From a phage, in NCBI GenBank assembly GCA_011911785.1, contig GCA_011911785.1_4084.1: 64,000 nucleotides of DNA; one strand, given 5' to 3'. Below, piece by piece: positions 4,038-56,536 of the stretch. The notes under the pieces are model-generated. The model was not told the DNA's origin. It saw only the letters and a program-made list of their open reading frames with translations, and ran no database searches. Both the position numbers and the translations under genes were made by a program. The first letter of the stretch is position 1. The number at the start of each line of letters is the position of its first letter.

Positions 4038-5015
4038 ATGTCCCATCACGGTGTGTATATGTACCCTTATAATCAGGAAGTATCATTGGGCAATTTTAAT
4101 ATGCCATTTAACAATGATAAGTTAACGATTTATCGTGGTGCTAACAATAACGTAACTTTCACAGTACACAATGCTGATGGAAAGTACACTCAATTAAAAA
4201 CTAATGAATATTTAACATTTATGATTTTCGATGCACGTAACAATACGATTTTGTTTGATACTGTATTGGAAAAGATTTTACCAAGTTGGTTAAACGATAG
4301 TGGTCAGGCTAAACCTACTTTGGGTAATAGTAAAAAAGTATATTATGGTTGTATAATTCCTGCTGGTATTATACAAGATACTAGTCCTGGTTCCAAATAC
4401 AGATGGAGTATTACTAAAGTAACTATGGACGGTTCGTTGATTGAACCAACACAGTACTTATATACTGGTTTAAATTATGAAGCATCATCTGAACTAATTA
4501 TCTCCGACAAAGCAGCACCTGTTTTCGTACCAAGCATTGAAGTTTCTGCTGATCAGAATCCATCTTGGAAATCTATCAAGTCTGCGTTCAGAGAACCTAT
4601 TAGTGATGGTTTTAAAGGTGAATTTGATGTTATGTGTACATCGCCTTTGAGAGCACAAATGCAATATGGTTTAGTTGATGGTTTAAGTACTATTGCAATT
4701 TACTGTAATGGTTTTATTGGTAGGATACAGTTACAAGGATGCTTGAGTAATGATGTACCAAGTGATAGTGATAACTATAAGTGGTTTATTATCAAGTTGG
4801 ATGGAAAAGAGTACATCGAGAATGGCATAGATGAAAATGGCGTACCCGTTCCGTTGGAAGGTATACAGGCATTTAATTTTAAAGGTAATTACATGTGGCT
4901 TCGTGTGGTTGTTAGTATTCGTCCAATCTCCAAACCAATCCCATATGATTATGCTGCAATCCGTAAAATCTATAACCCACTCTTAACTGTTCCTAAAATT
5001 TTGATTCGTCGATGA
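4038..5015 (+). CDS. hypothetical protein (325 aa)
   Basis: In-frame ATG at 4038 preceded by GGAAGG; start moved from ORF-track 3843 because the upstream extension is low-complexity. Confidence 0.55.
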   Translation: MSHHGVYMYPYNQEVSLGNFNMPFNNDKLTIYRGANNNVTFTVHNADGKYTQLKTNEYLTFMIFDARNNTILFDTVLEKILPSWLNDSGQAKPTLGNSKKVYYGCIIPAGIIQDTSPGSKYRWSITKVTMDGSLIEPTQYLYTGLNYEASSELIISDKAAPVFVPSIEVSADQNPSWKSIKSAFREPISDGFKGEFDVMCTSPLRAQMQYGLVDGLSTIAIYCNGFIGRIQLQGCLSNDVPSDSDNYKWFIIKLDGKEYIENGIDENGVPVPLEGIQAFNFKGNYMWLRVVVSIRPISKPIPYDYAAIRKIYNPLLTVPKILIRR

Positions 5016-5068
5016 GACATACTCATAAGCTGTGATATAATCATCGAAGACAAGAAAAGGAATTACAT

Positions 5069-38932: not shown

Positions 38933-39747
38933 GAATTTTAAATATGTTGAAATCTCTACATGAAAGTACTAAATTGGTTCAGGATGAAAAGTATCGTCGC
39001 AGTACTACAAAAGATTTAGCTTGTAGAATGTATATGCGTAGATTTGAGATTTCAAGGATTGGTAAGGGATGGGATGACATTAAACGTGATGATATCGATC
39101 CCGATGCAATCTTTAAAGCATATATGGCACGAAAGGTTTTCATTAATGAAAAAACATTTTATATTGACAGTGATAGAGAACGTGAAGTACAATTCACAAA
39201 AGGATTGTGGAAAATCTGGTGCATTGAGACATTTGGTGAGTTGTTACCTGAACCACCAGTACCAGAGACGTACAAAGAACTAAAGAACATCTTTGATAAT
39301 GAACATATACATATGAATTTTTCATTATATGAGACTGTCAATGAGGCATTGTTCTATGGTGAACTACACGGTCATAATGAATATTTTAGTTCTATGGTAG
39401 AGTTTGATTTGTTTTGTCATTTACCTGGGGTACAAAGCTGGACATCTGATCAGTACAGAGCCAGTAAGGTTGACAAACGTAAATTTTCAGCACAGAGATT
39501 TGTACAAGCAGCAATGGGTATGTATAAACTGGACTATCTGAACTGTCCAGAACCATATAAACATTTTTGGAAAGAAAGAGCACAGAAATGTTTAAACTAT
39601 GCTATCATACGTCTTATGGAAGTTTACATTTTAAAATTTAGGAATGCAACGGTGTATGATATGCCGGAGCCACCTAAAGATGAGAAGTACCCACCAGTTA
39701 AGGGTTTCAACTGGTACAGAGAGAAGAACAACAAAGGGACGTGCTAA
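38929..39747 (+). CDS. hypothetical protein (272 aa)
   Basis: ORF track; ATGA overlap. Confidence 0.5.
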   Translation: MRILNMLKSLHESTKLVQDEKYRRSTTKDLACRMYMRRFEISRIGKGWDDIKRDDIDPDAIFKAYMARKVFINEKTFYIDSDREREVQFTKGLWKIWCIETFGELLPEPPVPETYKELKNIFDNEHIHMNFSLYETVNEALFYGELHGHNEYFSSMVEFDLFCHLPGVQSWTSDQYRASKVDKRKFSAQRFVQAAMGMYKLDYLNCPEPYKHFWKERAQKCLNYAIIRLMEVYILKFRNATVYDMPEPPKDEKYPPVKGFNWYREKNNKGTC

Positions 39748-39762
39748 GGTGCGTCCTTTTTT
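39734..39762 (+). terminator. intrinsic terminator overlapping stop codon
   Basis: AAGGGACG-(10 nt)-CGTCCTTT stem followed by TTTTTTC. Confidence 0.5.
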
Positions 39763-39772
39763 CATTTAGGTG

Positions 39773-39801
39773 TTGACAATACTAATCAAGTTAGATAGAA
39801 T
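39773..39801 (+). promoter_or_regulatory. sigma70-like promoter (TTGACA-N17-TAGAAT)
   Basis: TTGACA at 39773-78 and TAGAAT at 39796-801. Confidence 0.55.
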
Positions 39802-39840: not shown

Positions 39841-40959
39841 ATGAAAGGAAAATATTTTTTCATTGAGAACAAACAAGAAATTGAAATCCAAGAGTTTGAT
39901 TACCAGTTTGTGTTGAATTCATTACTGAAAAAGTATGATCGTCGCGACAATAAAAAGTACTTTTATAATGTAATCGTAAAACGTACTTATGATTCAATGG
40001 GAAATCCCGAATTTGATGTTCGTAATTTAGAACTATCAAAAATTTACTATTCAAACACACGTTTGAATATGTTAGATCTCATGAAAGATGAAATTCATTT
40101 TAAAAATATTCAGATTCGTGATTTACCAGTGCCCCCACTTGAGCGTGAATACGAAGCATGGAAAGAAGGTCGTCTTAAACCACGTCCAGAACTTGCAGTG
40201 GTTGAAGTGCCAGCACCAATTGTTCTGACTAAAACACCAATTGATCCAGAAGATGAACGCATTGCGGATATCGAACAATGGATGGAATTTCCTGAAACTA
40301 TTAAAAAGGATTCTGTAAAAGTACTGGATTGGTTCGTAAACTTACCAGTATGTGCACAGGAAGTTGGTGTGAAGATTCAAAAAATTTCAGAGCGTCAATT
40401 GGACCTTAATGATGCATTACATAAGCATAGTGATTATGTTAGAACATTAATGAATAACTTAACCACTGCACTTGAATCGTTATTCCCATTGAAACCAACA
40501 TTTACACAAAAACTGTTTGGTAAAGCTGATATAAAGGTTCAACAGGCCGATTTACCTAAAGTAATGAAAGCATTGAATGATGCAGTGAAATATGATACGA
40601 ATAAGTTTAGTGGTTTAACTTCATTGTTTAATGAAATTCGAACTGAAGTTCGTGATATTAAAGATGAATTAGAATACGGAAAAATTGGGTGTGAGTATGC
40701 TATTCGTCGTTTGGATGATGCATTTGAATATGAACTGACTCTTGAACGTATCATGAAAATGAGCATTACCGCCGCAATGACTGAAGCTAGTATCGTTAAT
40801 GTGAGTAAACAGTATCAGATTGATATGAATAGAATGGTAGATATCCAAACTATTACTATTCCGTTGATTATCAATCGTTTACAGACACAAGTTGGAAAAG
40901 CAGTAGACGCAGATACCGCCGCGATCATTCGCAACTTAGCTTACGGCGATAAAGAGTAA
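39841..40959 (+). CDS. hypothetical protein (372 aa)
   Basis: ORF track; GAGG RBS 6 nt upstream of second ATG. Confidence 0.55.
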   Translation: MKGKYFFIENKQEIEIQEFDYQFVLNSLLKKYDRRDNKKYFYNVIVKRTYDSMGNPEFDVRNLELSKIYYSNTRLNMLDLMKDEIHFKNIQIRDLPVPPLEREYEAWKEGRLKPRPELAVVEVPAPIVLTKTPIDPEDERIADIEQWMEFPETIKKDSVKVLDWFVNLPVCAQEVGVKIQKISERQLDLNDALHKHSDYVRTLMNNLTTALESLFPLKPTFTQKLFGKADIKVQQADLPKVMKALNDAVKYDTNKFSGLTSLFNEIRTEVRDIKDELEYGKIGCEYAIRRLDDAFEYELTLERIMKMSITAAMTEASIVNVSKQYQIDMNRMVDIQTITIPLIINRLQTQVGKAVDADTAAIIRNLAYGDKE

Positions 40960-40968
40960 AAATAGTTG

Positions 40969-41016
40969 TTGACATAACTGTGTGTTGCTCGTATAATGTT
41001 TATCACAGAGCAACAC
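40969..41016 (+). promoter_or_regulatory. consensus sigma70 promoter with flanking inverted repeat
   Basis: TTGACA at 40969-74, TATAAT at 40992-97; 9-bp inverted repeat GTGTTGCTC (40982-90) / GAGCAACAC (41008-16) brackets the -10. Confidence 0.6.
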
Positions 41017-41044
41017 TATCTTAAATTAAATGAGGAATAACCTA

Positions 41045-42172
41045 ATGTCCGAGAAAGAAATCAATCCAAAAAAAGCAACTACCAAAACTTCTAAGCGTAC
41101 TACGACCAAAACCAAAGGTAATACTTTTGATGCGAGTGATATTTTCGACCAACAGTCTAAGACGTTACCAGTACTGAAAGATACAAAAGGTAACACTATG
41201 TCTTTAACTGTTCAGAACATTAACACCATTGGAACAACTGCTGGTGCAGGTGTCGGACGACTGGCTGATGAAATCATGTCAAAAGTGAACGTCACTGATG
41301 ACAATACTGAATTTGGTAAATCAATTACCACAATTTTATCACTAACCCGTGCTGTTGATATTGACAGTCTACAAGATGATAAATCAATTGTAGGTTGGGT
41401 CAAAAAACTCTTTGTCAATGCAAAACAGAAAGTTGGTGATCAGTACAAGAATAGTAAAGAGCAGATTGATGAAATCATGAACACACTCCAGGTTGGTATC
41501 AATCGCCAACATAGTGAATGTGAGTGGTTGGATACTGCTTACAATGAGAATAAAGCCTATCTATTTGAATTACGCGATACGCTGGTTGAATTGGAACAAG
41601 TTACAAAAACTCAAGATGCTAAACTGGAAGAAATGCAAGCGAACCCTGATGTGGATTCTTTCGCAATCCAAGAGCAGAAGATGATTTGTGAAGCATTGTC
41701 TAAACAGGAAGATAAGATTCGCCGTCTTATCATGATGTGTGAGCTTAGTGGCCCTCGTCTGATGAGTATGAAGAAAGTGAATCTAAACACTGTATCTAAA
41801 TTTGAAGATCTGAAATCTGTTGTCATCCCTGCATGGAAATCACAACTAGCAGAACAATTGATTTCTGAACGCCAACGCAAAGATAATGAGTTGGGTAATT
41901 TGATTGATAATGAAACTAACCGTTTACTTGAAGTGAACTCCAAAATGGTAGCAACTAATATGTTAGATGCTGCTAAAGCTAATAACCGTGGTATTGTGGA
42001 TATTAAAACATTGCGTAACGTACACAAAACAATGATCGATAGCATCGAAGCAGTACTGATTGAAGAGAAGAAAGGTAAGGAAGAACGTGAACGTGCTAAA
42101 CATGAAATTGCACAGTTGTCCTACGAACTTGAAGAAACTCTTCGCGAAATTGCTGACAAAGCTAACAAGTAA
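41045..42172 (+). CDS. hypothetical coiled-coil protein (375 aa)
   Basis: ATG 41045 with GAGGAA RBS; largely alpha-helical/coiled-coil composition. Confidence 0.55.
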   Translation: MSEKEINPKKATTKTSKRTTTKTKGNTFDASDIFDQQSKTLPVLKDTKGNTMSLTVQNINTIGTTAGAGVGRLADEIMSKVNVTDDNTEFGKSITTILSLTRAVDIDSLQDDKSIVGWVKKLFVNAKQKVGDQYKNSKEQIDEIMNTLQVGINRQHSECEWLDTAYNENKAYLFELRDTLVELEQVTKTQDAKLEEMQANPDVDSFAIQEQKMICEALSKQEDKIRRLIMMCELSGPRLMSMKKVNLNTVSKFEDLKSVVIPAWKSQLAEQLISERQRKDNELGNLIDNETNRLLEVNSKMVATNMLDAAKANNRGIVDIKTLRNVHKTMIDSIEAVLIEEKKGKEERERAKHEIAQLSYELEETLREIADKANK

Positions 42173-42175
42173 TAG

Positions 42176-42212
42176 TTGACATATAAATGTGCCCATTGTA
42201 TAATGGGCACAT
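42176..42212 (+). promoter_or_regulatory. consensus sigma70 promoter with -10 at centre of a palindrome
   Basis: TTGACA at 42176-81, TATAAT at 42199-204; palindrome ATGTGCCCATT-GTAT-AATGGGCACAT (42187-42212). Confidence 0.6.
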
Positions 42213-42240
42213 ATTTTATTAATTATCTAAGGATAATATG

Positions 42241-42939
42241 ATGGCAGATAAAGTTACACACTATGCAGTTGATATTGAATCTTTCGGAACTCCAGAACGT
42301 AGTGGTTATGATATTACCATTCCAAATTACGCAATTGTTTTAGTTCCAACTAACCCAATGAAAGATATCTCACGTTATGCATATGTTAAACTACCATTCC
42401 AAAAACAAATTGATGCTGGTCTTAAAGTTGATGCAGGTTCAATGAACTTTTGGATGAATATGTGTCAAAATGATCATAAAGGTGCATATGAAGAAGTAGT
42501 TAGTACACTCACGTTGACAGAACCAGAAATTATTTCCGGTAGTCAAAACAATTTGTATAAAACAAAAAATGTACTTGATTTGTGGAATGCACTTCGTTAT
42601 GATCTTAATGGAAATGAGAACAATATTGAAATTTGGGGTAATGGCTGTCACTTCGATTGTAGTATTCTTCAAGCAAACCATCGTAAAATGTTTGGTGTGG
42701 GCGAATTGTGGAAATACAATGCACCACAGAATGCCCGAAGTGTTAAGAATCGCCTAACTGAAGATGAAAAATTTGACATGGATTCCATTGTTGATGTACA
42801 ATTGAAAAAGTTTGTGGAGATGGTTGCTGATCATGGTCTTTATGGTCTAGAACTTCACCACCCATTATTCGATGCAGCACGTGAAGCTATCCAGGTTTCA
42901 TATTGCTTAAATGCAATCAACGAACGCGGAAACTATTAA
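42241..42939 (+). CDS. dexA: DEDDh 3'-5' exonuclease (T4 DexA-like)
   Basis: Exo I VDIESFG, Exo II GCHFDCSIL, Exo III HHPLFDAAREA; about 232 aa, similar to T4 DexA. Confidence 0.7.
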   Translation: MADKVTHYAVDIESFGTPERSGYDITIPNYAIVLVPTNPMKDISRYAYVKLPFQKQIDAGLKVDAGSMNFWMNMCQNDHKGAYEEVVSTLTLTEPEIISGSQNNLYKTKNVLDLWNALRYDLNGNENNIEIWGNGCHFDCSILQANHRKMFGVGELWKYNAPQNARSVKNRLTEDEKFDMDSIVDVQLKKFVEMVADHGLYGLELHHPLFDAAREAIQVSYCLNAINERGNY

Positions 42940-42949
42940 AGGTAACACA

Positions 42950-44047
42950 ATGAACTTAGCAATTCTTCTAATACCAAGTTTGATAGTTGTTCTAATCATG
43001 AAGTTCAAATACCATACTGCCATAACAACAAAGGAATTGCTAATTCATACTGGAATTTGCTTTCTTGCAGCGGTGTTGGTATTGGGAACATCATACTTGA
43101 TAAACTACAGCCAACTTCGTGATGTTGAAATTCTAAATGGTCAGGTTACAGAGAAATACAGCCAACGTGAGAACTGCACATCACAATCAAGTTCTTGTAA
43201 ACACTATACTTGGCATGAGCGTTGCTGGACTACCTATGATTCTAAAGGTCGCTCACAACGTGAATGTGAATCTTATAAGGTATTCGACTATCCGTATGAG
43301 ATTGATTGGTACGTTAAAAGCACTGTTGGTAAGTTTGAGATTGAAAGGGTCAATAGACAAGGAACACAAACTCCACCACGCTGGCAAGAAGTGAAAATTG
43401 GTGATTATGCAGCAGCAGAAAACACATACATAAATTATCTATTTGCAGATAAACACTCATTATTCAGTACTGAAGATTTGATTTCTATGTATGATAAAGA
43501 ATATCTGGAATCTTTACCTGAATATCCAAGTATTAGTGATTATTATAAAACACACCACGTTATTAATAAAACTGATTACGATGTGAGTGGGTATGATGAA
43601 TATTTACGTGAAGTGTTAAAAACATTAGGTGCACAAAAGCAAGTAAACATTCAAGTACTAGTATATGATTATCATGACGTGAATTTTGTTGATGCAGTAA
43701 CCTCAATCTGGCGTGGTGGCAAGAAGAACGATGTGATTATGTTCTTTGGTATCAGTAATGATGGTGTCGTTAAATCATTCAATAGTACGTCATTCGCTAA
43801 AGGTATGAATAATGAAGAATTGCATTCTAAAATGCGAATGGATGCGTTAAATGAAGTATTAACACTTGACTTACTTAAAGTTCAGGTTCATAATATACAG
43901 ACTAAGTTTGAACGTCTGTCGAATAAAGAGTTTGAATACATGGCAGTTAAAATGGAACCACGAAAAGATGTTATGATTGCTGCATCTTTGATTCTCATTG
44001 TACTGTCGATTGTTGTTGGTCTTTATATGAAGGAAAATAATGTATGA
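42950..44047 (+). CDS. membrane protein with N- and C-terminal TM helices and Cys-rich middle (365 aa)
   Basis: ATG 42950; hydrophobic N-terminus and C-terminal IAASLILIVLSIVVGLY. Confidence 0.5.
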   Translation: MNLAILLIPSLIVVLIMKFKYHTAITTKELLIHTGICFLAAVLVLGTSYLINYSQLRDVEILNGQVTEKYSQRENCTSQSSSCKHYTWHERCWTTYDSKGRSQRECESYKVFDYPYEIDWYVKSTVGKFEIERVNRQGTQTPPRWQEVKIGDYAAAENTYINYLFADKHSLFSTEDLISMYDKEYLESLPEYPSISDYYKTHHVINKTDYDVSGYDEYLREVLKTLGAQKQVNIQVLVYDYHDVNFVDAVTSIWRGGKKNDVIMFFGISNDGVVKSFNSTSFAKGMNNEELHSKMRMDALNEVLTLDLLKVQVHNIQTKFERLSNKEFEYMAVKMEPRKDVMIAASLILIVLSIVVGLYMKENNV

Positions 44048-44604: not shown

Positions 44605-44633
44605 GGGGAGTACATTATTGTACTCCCTTTTTA
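44605..44633 (+). terminator. intrinsic terminator
   Basis: GGGAGTACA-TTAT-TGTACTCCC hairpin followed by TTTTT. Confidence 0.7.
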
Positions 44634-47348: not shown

Positions 47349-47362
47349 ACATGAAAAAAGAG

Positions 47363-47391
47363 TTGACAATATTCGTCATTCCAACTATAAT
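47363..47391 (+). promoter_or_regulatory. consensus sigma70 promoter (TTGACA-N17-TATAAT)
   Basis: TTGACA at 47363-68, TATAAT at 47386-91. Confidence 0.55.
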
Positions 47392-47513
47392 GTTGATATT
47401 GGCTCTGGTGTTCCCACAATCACATGTGGTTATGCTTAACATCATAGAACTAATTTTATTGGTAATACACTGTATTGTCTGTTACTATTACATTAACAGT
47501 AATGAGGATCGTG

Positions 47514-47936
47514 ATGAAGTATTATAAAATTCGTATCATTACCAGTTCAGGGGCATCAGCGTGGATTTTTTATGATCTTCCAGATTCATATACCATCGAT
47601 GATGTAAAAGATTTATACTACGAAGATAACAATTGGGTTTTTGATTTAGAATCCAAAAGTGTAGAGATTGATGAGATTACTGAACAAGAATACAAGATTG
47701 GCACACAAGCTATGAAGTACTTTGAACGTAATCTTAAAATGTTACAGGAAAATGTGTTCCCTGTAAAAGAATGGGCAATTCTCCTTGCTAATTCCAATAA
47801 ACCTGTTAGAATTGGTTATCCAAACTTTCATATGGTATATCGTATGAATGAAAATCGTGAATTGAGTTATCAATTTGATTACGATGCTGCTAAGTTTGGT
47901 GTTCTGAAATCGTTTGAAAAGGCATATCCAGTATGA
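47514..47936 (+). CDS. hypothetical protein (140 aa)
   Basis: ATG 47514 with GAGGA RBS; ORF-track start 47475 runs back over the promoter. Confidence 0.5.
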   Translation: MKYYKIRIITSSGASAWIFYDLPDSYTIDDVKDLYYEDNNWVFDLESKSVEIDEITEQEYKIGTQAMKYFERNLKMLQENVFPVKEWAILLANSNKPVRIGYPNFHMVYRMNENRELSYQFDYDAAKFGVLKSFEKAYPV

Positions 47937-56302: not shown

Positions 56303-56473
56303 ATGAGTCTGAGTGAATCCTGGAAACAGTTCAAAGAAGAGATTGGTTATCGTGGTGTATCGATTGAACCAATCAATCGTACTGAAAGCATTAAGGCCAG
56401 TACTAACGGTACTACCTATGACCGATATGACCCACGATACGGGTTACATGAAGAAGTCAAAAAAGAAGATTGA
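56303..56473 (+). CDS. small ORF (56 aa)
   Basis: AAGGGG RBS upstream of ATG; ends just before terminator 56482-56511; below ORF-track cutoff. Confidence 0.45.
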   Translation: MSLSESWKQFKEEIGYRGVSIEPINRTESIKASTNGTTYDRYDPRYGLHEEVKKED

Positions 56474-56481
56474 CAATATAT

Positions 56482-56511
56482 CGAGAGTGTGTGATAATAC
56501 TCTCGTCTTTT
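56482..56511 (+). terminator. intrinsic terminator
   Basis: CGAGAGT-(10 nt)-ACTCTCG hairpin followed by TCTTTT. Confidence 0.6.
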
Positions 56512-56536
56512 AATTAAACAAAAAGGTAAAATAAAA

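Follow-up and report, generated by a model that had tools for sequence, protein, structure and literature searches.

A consensus sigma70-type promoter that probably encloses a terminator hairpin downstream of a TelA-like gene in an Asteriusvirus-type jumbo phage

Composite promoter-terminator motifs known as PeSLs (promoter-early stem-loops) have been described in the T4-like phages RB49/phi1, T4/PST and KVP40/nt-1 (Arbiol et al. 2010, PMC2839356; Comeau et al. 2014, PMC4122927). Each PeSL comprises a sigma70 promoter and a stem-loop that most often is located between the -35 and -10 boxes or overlaps the -10 box, and the motifs end in a Shine-Dalgarno sequence and a start codon. The promoter and terminator activities of PeSLs were both demonstrated with lacZ reporters, and the motifs have been proposed as recombination points for gene shuffling (PMC2839356, PMC4122927). 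RpoD-like early promoters and Rho-independent terminators also have been catalogued for the Rak2-like jumbo phages CBB and GAP32 (PMC5259590). In a term search of the CBB paper the promoters and terminators were found to be given separately, with no mention of stem-loops or PeSLs (PMC5259590), and promoters, terminators and stem-loops were unmentioned in a term search of the paper on fEgEco12. A literature search for transcript mapping or RNA-seq in Asteriusviruses found no paper. The element described here, located at position 42176 of the DNA analyzed, shares its promoter consensus and general phage group with the promoters of CBB and GAP32, and its architecture resembles that of the PeSLs.

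The window, i.e., the whole stretch of 64,000 nucleotides that was analyzed, carries almost all of its genes on the + strand. Over 40800-43000, nucleotide identity amounts to 98.5% with Escherichia phage A4 and to 81-84% with other members of Asteriusvirus, and the window is assigned to an Asteriusvirus-type jumbo phage of E. coli. A gap of 65 nt in this region separates a TelA-like gene from a DexA/Rv2179c-like 3'-5' exonuclease gene, both on the + strand. The TelA-like gene (41045-42172) forms the upstream transcription unit; the open reading frame matches Pfam TelA (PF05816) with E = 4.9e-38 and is TelA-like also in the annotation of phage A4. A search of IMG/VR with the TelA-like protein recovered phage 121Q as the sole match, and an Rfam search of 40800-42400 at a permissive E-value gave no match. 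The exonuclease gene (42241-42939; Pfam PF16473, E = 1.1e-8) begins at an ATG equivalent to that chosen in the annotation of phage A4, and would be the first gene in the transcription unit of the promoter described below.

The first-pass annotation had placed a TTGACA-N17-TATAAT promoter upstream of the DexA-like gene, and direct reading of the + strand confirmed the coordinates. The TAA stop codon of the TelA-like gene (42170-42172) is followed by TAG and then by TTGACA, such that the -35 hexamer (42176-42181) is positioned 3 nt past the stop. A 17-nt spacer (42182-42198) leads to the -10 hexamer TATAAT (42199-42204) and a GGG discriminator (42205-42207). Standard sigma70 geometry predicts transcription to start at A42211, the seventh base past the -10 box. 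The Shine-Dalgarno sequence AAGGA (42229-42233) and the ATG of the exonuclease gene (42241-42243) are in place further downstream. The next terminator-like hairpin on the + strand, GGGGAGTACA..TGTACTCCCT followed by TTTTAA (44605-44628), is the probable end point of transcripts initiated at 42211.

The 42176 promoter agrees with the sigma70 consensus at 12/12 hexamer positions and possesses a 17-nt spacer. Perfect TTGACA-N16-18-TATAAT strings were found three times in the window compared to an expectation of 0.18, a count that was reached in 0/100 shuffles. Across nine distinct Asteriusvirus sequences, TTGAC and TATAAT are invariant whereas the intervening and downstream bases vary. Sequence and conservation together give good support to the element as a full-consensus sigma70-type promoter. 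The third perfect TTGACA-N17-TATAAT string in the window (47363-47391) is situated 12 nt into a 58-codon open reading frame (47351-47527) and is not accompanied by a dyad; either the reading frame call or the promoter may be spurious at that site. A T4-type late promoter also was considered at 42183-42190, where TATAAATG matches TATAAATA at 7/8 positions. This reading was dropped because relatives do not conserve the motif and a single exact copy of TATAAATA is present in the window.

The promoter is overlapped by a palindrome of 11+4+11 nt composed of ATGTGCCCATT (42187-42197), GTAT (42198-42201) and AATGGGCACAT (42202-42212), the 5' arm of which occupies the 3' part of the spacer. The -10 box had been placed at the centre of this 26-bp palindrome by the first-pass annotation. 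The two features do overlap, but the centring is inexact: the hexamer is offset ~2.5 nt 3' of the dyad centre, with three of its bases in the loop and three at the beginning of the 3' arm. Two perfect hairpins with arms of 11 bp and loops of 3-8 nt were found in the window compared to 0.15 in first-order Markov simulations. As RNA, 42173-42225 has a predicted folding energy of -17.5 kcal/mol (z = -3.7) and the hairpin in a 52-nt context a value of -16.8 kcal/mol. The stem consists of 11 bp, including five G-C pairs, is capped by the 4-nt loop and begins 15 nt past the TAA stop of the TelA-like gene. The 24-nt core of the hairpin had no match in IMG/VR or in the metagenome collection. Nor is the hairpin arm repeated in the window, in which the half-site with ≤2 mismatches was detected at 17 sites compared to 22.5 expected.

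Directly after the stem is the T-rich tail ATTTTATT (42213-42220), in which six of eight bases are T and which is the proposed U-tract and release zone. The combination of hairpin and ATTTTATT, which was absent from the earlier annotation, was flagged as terminator-like by a simple scan. Terminator-like hairpins are enriched between 35 and 50 kb of the window, where 18 were detected compared to an expectation of 5.8 ± 2.6. The U-tract of the window hairpin is not continuous (A-UUUU-A-UU). A d'Aubenton-Carafa-type score of -2 to -14 was borderline, falling within the range of the other hairpins of the phage and below the best ones; this score is uncalibrated with modern energies, is very sensitive to how stem and tail are divided, and serves for ranking only. 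Termination at the 42176 hairpin may be partial as the U-tract is interrupted and the score is borderline.

The element is likely to be a composite of a host-sigma70 promoter and a nested intrinsic terminator or attenuator hairpin that belongs to the upstream TelA-like gene; we infer promoter activity, the start site and termination from the features outlined above. The hairpin (42187-42212) would span -24 to +2 relative to the predicted +1 at A42211. Polymerase arriving from the TelA-like gene would copy both arms (42187-42197 and 42202-42212), and the read-through RNA would form a GC-cored hairpin with a stem of 11 bp ahead of AUUUUAUU, with release expected at ~42215-42222. Polymerase that binds to the 42176 promoter instead would start at ~42211, where the 3' arm is about to end. 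RNA made from this start would contain no more than the two terminal bases of the 3' arm and nothing of the 5' arm, and hence would form no hairpin and would not be terminated. The transcript then would continue through the exonuclease gene and two further genes, probably to the terminator at 44605. With a gap of 65 nt and a -35 box that abuts the stop codon, a terminator that spares the transcripts of the promoter itself would fit only between -35 and +1. The location of the -10 box near the palindrome centre thus may reflect how little room the gap leaves for a terminator between -35 and +1.

The positions of hairpins with T-runs relative to promoters that matched at ≥11/12 hexamer positions were surveyed in the 64-kb window and in the first 50 kb of phage A4. 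All four T-run hairpins that overlapped a promoter end between -4 and +1 of the predicted start (42176 and 56470 in the window; 26302 and 41902 in A4). Two further terminators are located entirely upstream of a -35 box, and none was found entirely downstream of a start, a position in which it would halt the RNA of that promoter itself. The second nested promoter/terminator in the window (56470-56515, + strand) consists of TTGACA-N17-GATAAT, a hairpin at 56482-56505 whose 3' arm extends precisely to the predicted start, and the tail TCTTTTAATT (TCTTTT). The TGA stop of an open reading frame at 56303-56473 falls within the -35 hexamer of the 56470 promoter. The same window also contains a tandem form of the two functions on the same strand, in which a terminator (39733-39760) is followed by a promoter with TTGACA at 39773. 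The tandem arrangement leaves ~50 nt between the end of the hairpin and the start and requires a gap of 90 nt, whereas the hairpin at 42176 extends from -24 to +2 in a gap of 65 nt.

The gap downstream of the TelA-like gene was compared in 22 other phage records. All Asteriusviruses examined retain TAATAG-TTGACA and TATAAT. With the exception of A4, these phages possess a different dyad that comprises GAGTGCGTTTT(T), a loop containing TATAAT, and (A)AAACGCACTC, followed by T5-6. The hairpin of the relatives (GAGTGCGTTTT..AAAACGCACTC) folds with -15.7 to -22.1 kcal/mol per sequence, and the window hairpin cannot be aligned to it. The 3' arm in the relatives ends at +11 to +15 of the predicted start, and the same logic of sparing would apply to them. 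The first-pass annotation had held that a dyad unique to this phage and unconserved in relatives would speak against the element; instead, a dyad over the -10 box is retained in the relatives.

The Asteriusvirus alignment consisted of nine distinct sequences. Pairing was observed in 95.8% of the alignment cells compared to ≤55% when the 3' partner was slid. Two pairs exhibited compensatory double changes (A-U/G-C swaps, Turkey5 type), and G·U wobbles on the + strand were present in 121Q, UE-S1 and ph0011. The loops of the relatives range from 6 to 14 nt and vary in length by indels, one arm contains a bulge, and G·T pairs occur. Because the depth is small and 14/500 shuffles reach the observed covariation values with nine sequences, the covariation is thin evidence that may support, without deciding, the assignment of the dyad as an RNA hairpin. 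In RaK2, Hallingskeid, EJP2, 7t3, GAP32, XbC2 and fHe-Yen9-03, the same gap harbors a textbook hairpin and T-run without a consensus promoter, and in the record of phage G17 the orthologous hairpin is annotated as an ARNold terminator. As these distant genera have a plain terminator and the Asteriusviruses a terminator hairpin together with a promoter, the comparison indicates that the terminator is the constant feature of the gap downstream of TelA across genera, and that the Asteriusvirus promoter is interleaved with it.

A second promoter, at 40969, had been linked to that at 42176 by the first-pass annotation as part of a co-regulated class on account of a common upstream sequence. The 8-mer AATAGTTG indeed is present at both promoters (40961-40968 and 42171-42178), but the class was not upheld. 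The register of the two copies differs by 3 nt: AATAGTTG precedes TTGACA at 40961-40968, and its last three bases form the TTG of the -35 box at 42171-42178. Moreover, AATAGTTG is not enriched in the window, with seven copies compared to 4.4 expected and 12/100 shuffles reaching seven. As the 8-mer is out of register and not enriched, it defines no promoter class; it also consists partly of stop codons and of the -35 box itself. Downstream of the -10 box, GTTTATCACAG at 40998 resembles the early-promoter family of phage A4, whereas GGGCACAT at 42205 does not. The elements at 42176 and 40969 share the hexamers only, and their dyads are unrelated in sequence.

The sister element (40969-41016, + strand) comprises TTGACA (40969-40974), TATAAT (40992-40997) and a 9-bp dyad formed by GTGTTGCTC (40982-40990) and GAGCAACAC (41008-41016), with no T-run. 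The promoter agrees with the consensus at 12/12 hexamer positions, its -10 box is contained in the 17-nt loop of the dyad, and the fold has z = -3.6. A dyad that encloses the -10 box was recognized at the orthologous promoter in 13/13 phages examined, from ~7 genera, with arm sequences that differ (GTGCTG/CAGCAC, AGTGCTGTAT/ATACAGCACT, GGGAGTAT/ATACTCCC and AGATTGCTGT/ACAGCAATCT). One compensatory pair was detected within the Asteriusviruses, and the loop contains a conserved TATAAT-nTTTAyATCAAG-like stretch. These dyads were judged by per-sequence inspection and with a six-lineage alignment; RNAalifold found no structure in a cross-genus alignment of the 40969-type promoter, in which the arms could not be aligned by MAFFT. 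The 40969 dyad scores far below the terminators, and its 3' arm is located at ~+5 to +19. A small predicted stem, AUAGUUGU/AUAACUGU at 40962-40981, holds the -35 box of the same promoter in its loop; this stem, which is rich in A and T and includes G·U pairs, may be due to chance.

Dyads within promoters were also sought more widely. Of 81 sites in IMG/VR contigs that match TAATAGTTGACA-N17-TATAAT, almost all in unrelated viral contigs, 17% folded at ≤ -10 kcal/mol compared to 3.7% of shuffled controls. The strong cases mostly are hairpins between the -35 box and ~+9 whose loop contains or adjoins the -10 box, and a T-run is often missing; examples are L049 (CATAGCGCAATT-GATAGTAT-AATTGCGCTATG), L081, L064 and L071. 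As a T-run is missing at 40982-41016 and from many of the viral-contig dyads, not every -10-centred dyad is a canonical terminator. Some probability therefore is left on a non-terminator role for -10-centred dyads, mainly because of the 40969 dyad, which is conserved and lacks a T-run. It is conceivable, if rather doubtful, that dyads between -35 and ~+10 of consensus promoters constitute a selected and widespread phage module beyond the PeSLs of T4-like phages, with a form devoid of a U-tract whose role is other than intrinsic termination. That form may act, for example, in factor-dependent shut-off, in control of initiation coupled to read-through, or in DNA. The dyad at 40969, retained with altered arms in 13 phages, and the excess of strong hairpins at the viral-contig promoters would point in this direction. 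If this broader interpretation is correct, the 42176 element would represent the terminator-type end of a wider class that is undescribed.

Other promoter-like families were noted in the window and in phage A4. The 9-mer TGATATAAT, which resembles an extended -10 box, occurs 13 times in the window compared to 2.55 expected, and 0/100 shuffles reach 13. The 12 copies on the coding strand (+ strand; 186, 5033, 17148, 21078, 26767, 27084, 29740, 34114, 34936, 59004, 60811 and 63758) include several that are 30-60 nt 5' of start codons and none with a good -35 box; TGATATAAT could represent a further class of promoter. A terminator hairpin at 162-194, ACAGCGGGA-TAA-TCCCGCTGT, occupies the would-be -35 position directly 5' of TGATATAAT, and at 5008-5050 a 7-bp dyad (TCGATGA..TCATCGA) surrounds one of the TGATATAAT motifs. 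Phage A4 carries ~20 near-identical early-type promoters between ~8,000 and 24,100, of the form AAAAAGTA-TTGACA-N16-..GTACTG-TATAAT-AGTTTACATCAAGG. A small ORFan lies downstream of each of these promoters, and in many cases the predicted 5' UTR contains a GGGGAG..CTCCCC hairpin that lacks a T-run. This array resembles a PeSL-rich hyperplastic region. The 42176 element is not a member of the repeated promoter family at 8-24 kb of A4.

The principal alternative to a nested terminator retains the promoter as real and assigns the hairpin to an intercistronic stem-loop that shields the 3' end of a processed TelA-like mRNA against exonucleases or marks a processing site, the overlap with the promoter being due to the short gap. 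The interrupted U-tract and the borderline terminator score would agree with this role, as would the sister dyad at 40982-41016 and most of the -10-centred dyads in viral contigs, which lack T-runs and yet are conserved or enriched. Nevertheless, T5-6 directly follows the stem in all Asteriusvirus orthologues of the gap, distant genera carry textbook terminators at the same place including the G17 orthologue that ARNold calls a terminator, and an 11-bp stem is short for RNase III. Protection or processing of the upstream mRNA consequently is regarded as unlikely to be the main function of the hairpin.

The 26-bp palindrome also has the classic look of a repressor site, being a perfect 11+4+11 DNA palindrome over a -10 box, and two neighboring consensus promoters each have a dyad in this position. 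On these grounds the palindrome could be an operator at which a dimeric phage or host protein bound to the -10 box turns the promoter off, or on, at a given time and also controls that at 40969. Several observations make such a shared operator very improbable. The two dyads are unrelated both in sequence and in spacing, with loops of 4 and 17 nt; the half-site (≤2 mismatches) is no more frequent than expected in the window (17 vs 22.5); and neither IMG/VR nor the metagenome collection contains the 24-nt core. Furthermore, relatives with 81-84% nucleotide identity have another arm sequence in which the pairing is retained, and the spacing indels, the bulge and the G·U-type substitutions suit an RNA helix and not a symmetric protein site. 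The dyad at 42187-42212 thus is best read as an RNA hairpin in preference to a shared operator.

DNA dyads are known at the early promoters of phage N4. The hairpins of the N4 promoters, with a stem of 5-7 bp and a 3-nt loop, serve as the recognition element for the virion RNA polymerase of the phage and are without sigma70 hexamers. The 42176 element is similar in having a DNA dyad at a phage early promoter, and differs from the N4 promoters in having consensus hexamers and a dyad whose sequence can change freely. A cruciform extruded under negative supercoiling might expose or hide the -10 box, such that the promoter senses supercoiling or upstream transcription. The perfect palindrome in the window, with T-12, A-11 and T-10 in its 4-nt loop, would allow this, and -10-centred dyads without T-runs recur in unrelated phages. 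However, the loops of 6-14 nt, the bulge and the G·T pairs of the relatives disfavor extrusion, the key T at -7 is paired in the window, and the mechanism is without evidence for sigma70; a role of this kind is considered highly improbable. Least probable of all is that a terminator and an unused promoter-like string overlap by chance in AT-rich DNA, for although weak sigma70-like matches show no excess in the window (74 vs 72.8 in shuffles) and one of the three perfect matches (47363) is inside a small open reading frame, few 12/12 matches separated by 17 nt would be expected (0.18), the promoter is 60 nt 5' of a start codon, and Asteriusviruses all retain both hexamers amid varying spacer and downstream bases.

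The boundary between conserved and divergent DNA coincides with the element. In comparisons with three relatives, nucleotide identity is 0.78-0.90 up to 42180 and drops to 0.45-0.53 at precisely this position, the junction of the -35 box and the spacer. The exonuclease allele shared by the window and A4 has ~55% amino acid identity to those of all other Asteriusviruses and of RaK2, compared to 88-91% for TelA. Replacement of the exonuclease gene as a cassette, with one of the junctions inside the promoter, would fit both the drop in identity at 42180 and the far greater divergence of the exonuclease allele than of TelA; however, neighboring genes also are unevenly diverged (~75%). A search for the exonuclease allele in metagenomes returned no relatives, and no donor lineage was identified in consequence. 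Position 42180 may mark a recombination boundary next to the highly divergent allele of the exonuclease.

Taken as a promoter with a nested terminator, the 42176 element is similar to PeSLs in its near-perfect TTGACA-N17-TATAAT sequence, in the stem-loop over the -10 box that is followed by a Shine-Dalgarno sequence and ATG, and possibly in its location at a boundary where related genomes diverge. It is unlike PeSLs in that it resides in an Asteriusvirus jumbo phage and not in a T4-like phage, and in that the hairpin is unique, whereas PeSLs are a repeated motif of ~100 bp with G-run/C-run or A3-4G3..C3T3-4 stems. In addition, an AT-rich UP-like block is missing at 42176 because the -35 box, 3 nt past the stop, abuts coding sequence and is preceded by the 3' end of the TelA-like gene. 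By sequence, the element has the architecture of a PeSL and appears to lack the repeated, sequence-conserved motif that makes PeSLs recombinogenic.

The space-saving stop-and-restart arrangement of promoter and terminator already is described in T4-like phages, so that the case at 42176 is fairly ordinary and does not overturn current understanding. Nested elements of this type could provide compact promoter/insulator parts for synthetic biology. For the reading of compact phage gaps, a terminator can nest in the next promoter if its 5' arm is upstream of the start, and a palindrome over a -10 box therefore is not automatically an operator. For the phages themselves, the element at 42176 would extend the PeSL-type architecture from T4-like phages to the Asteriusvirus jumbo phages.
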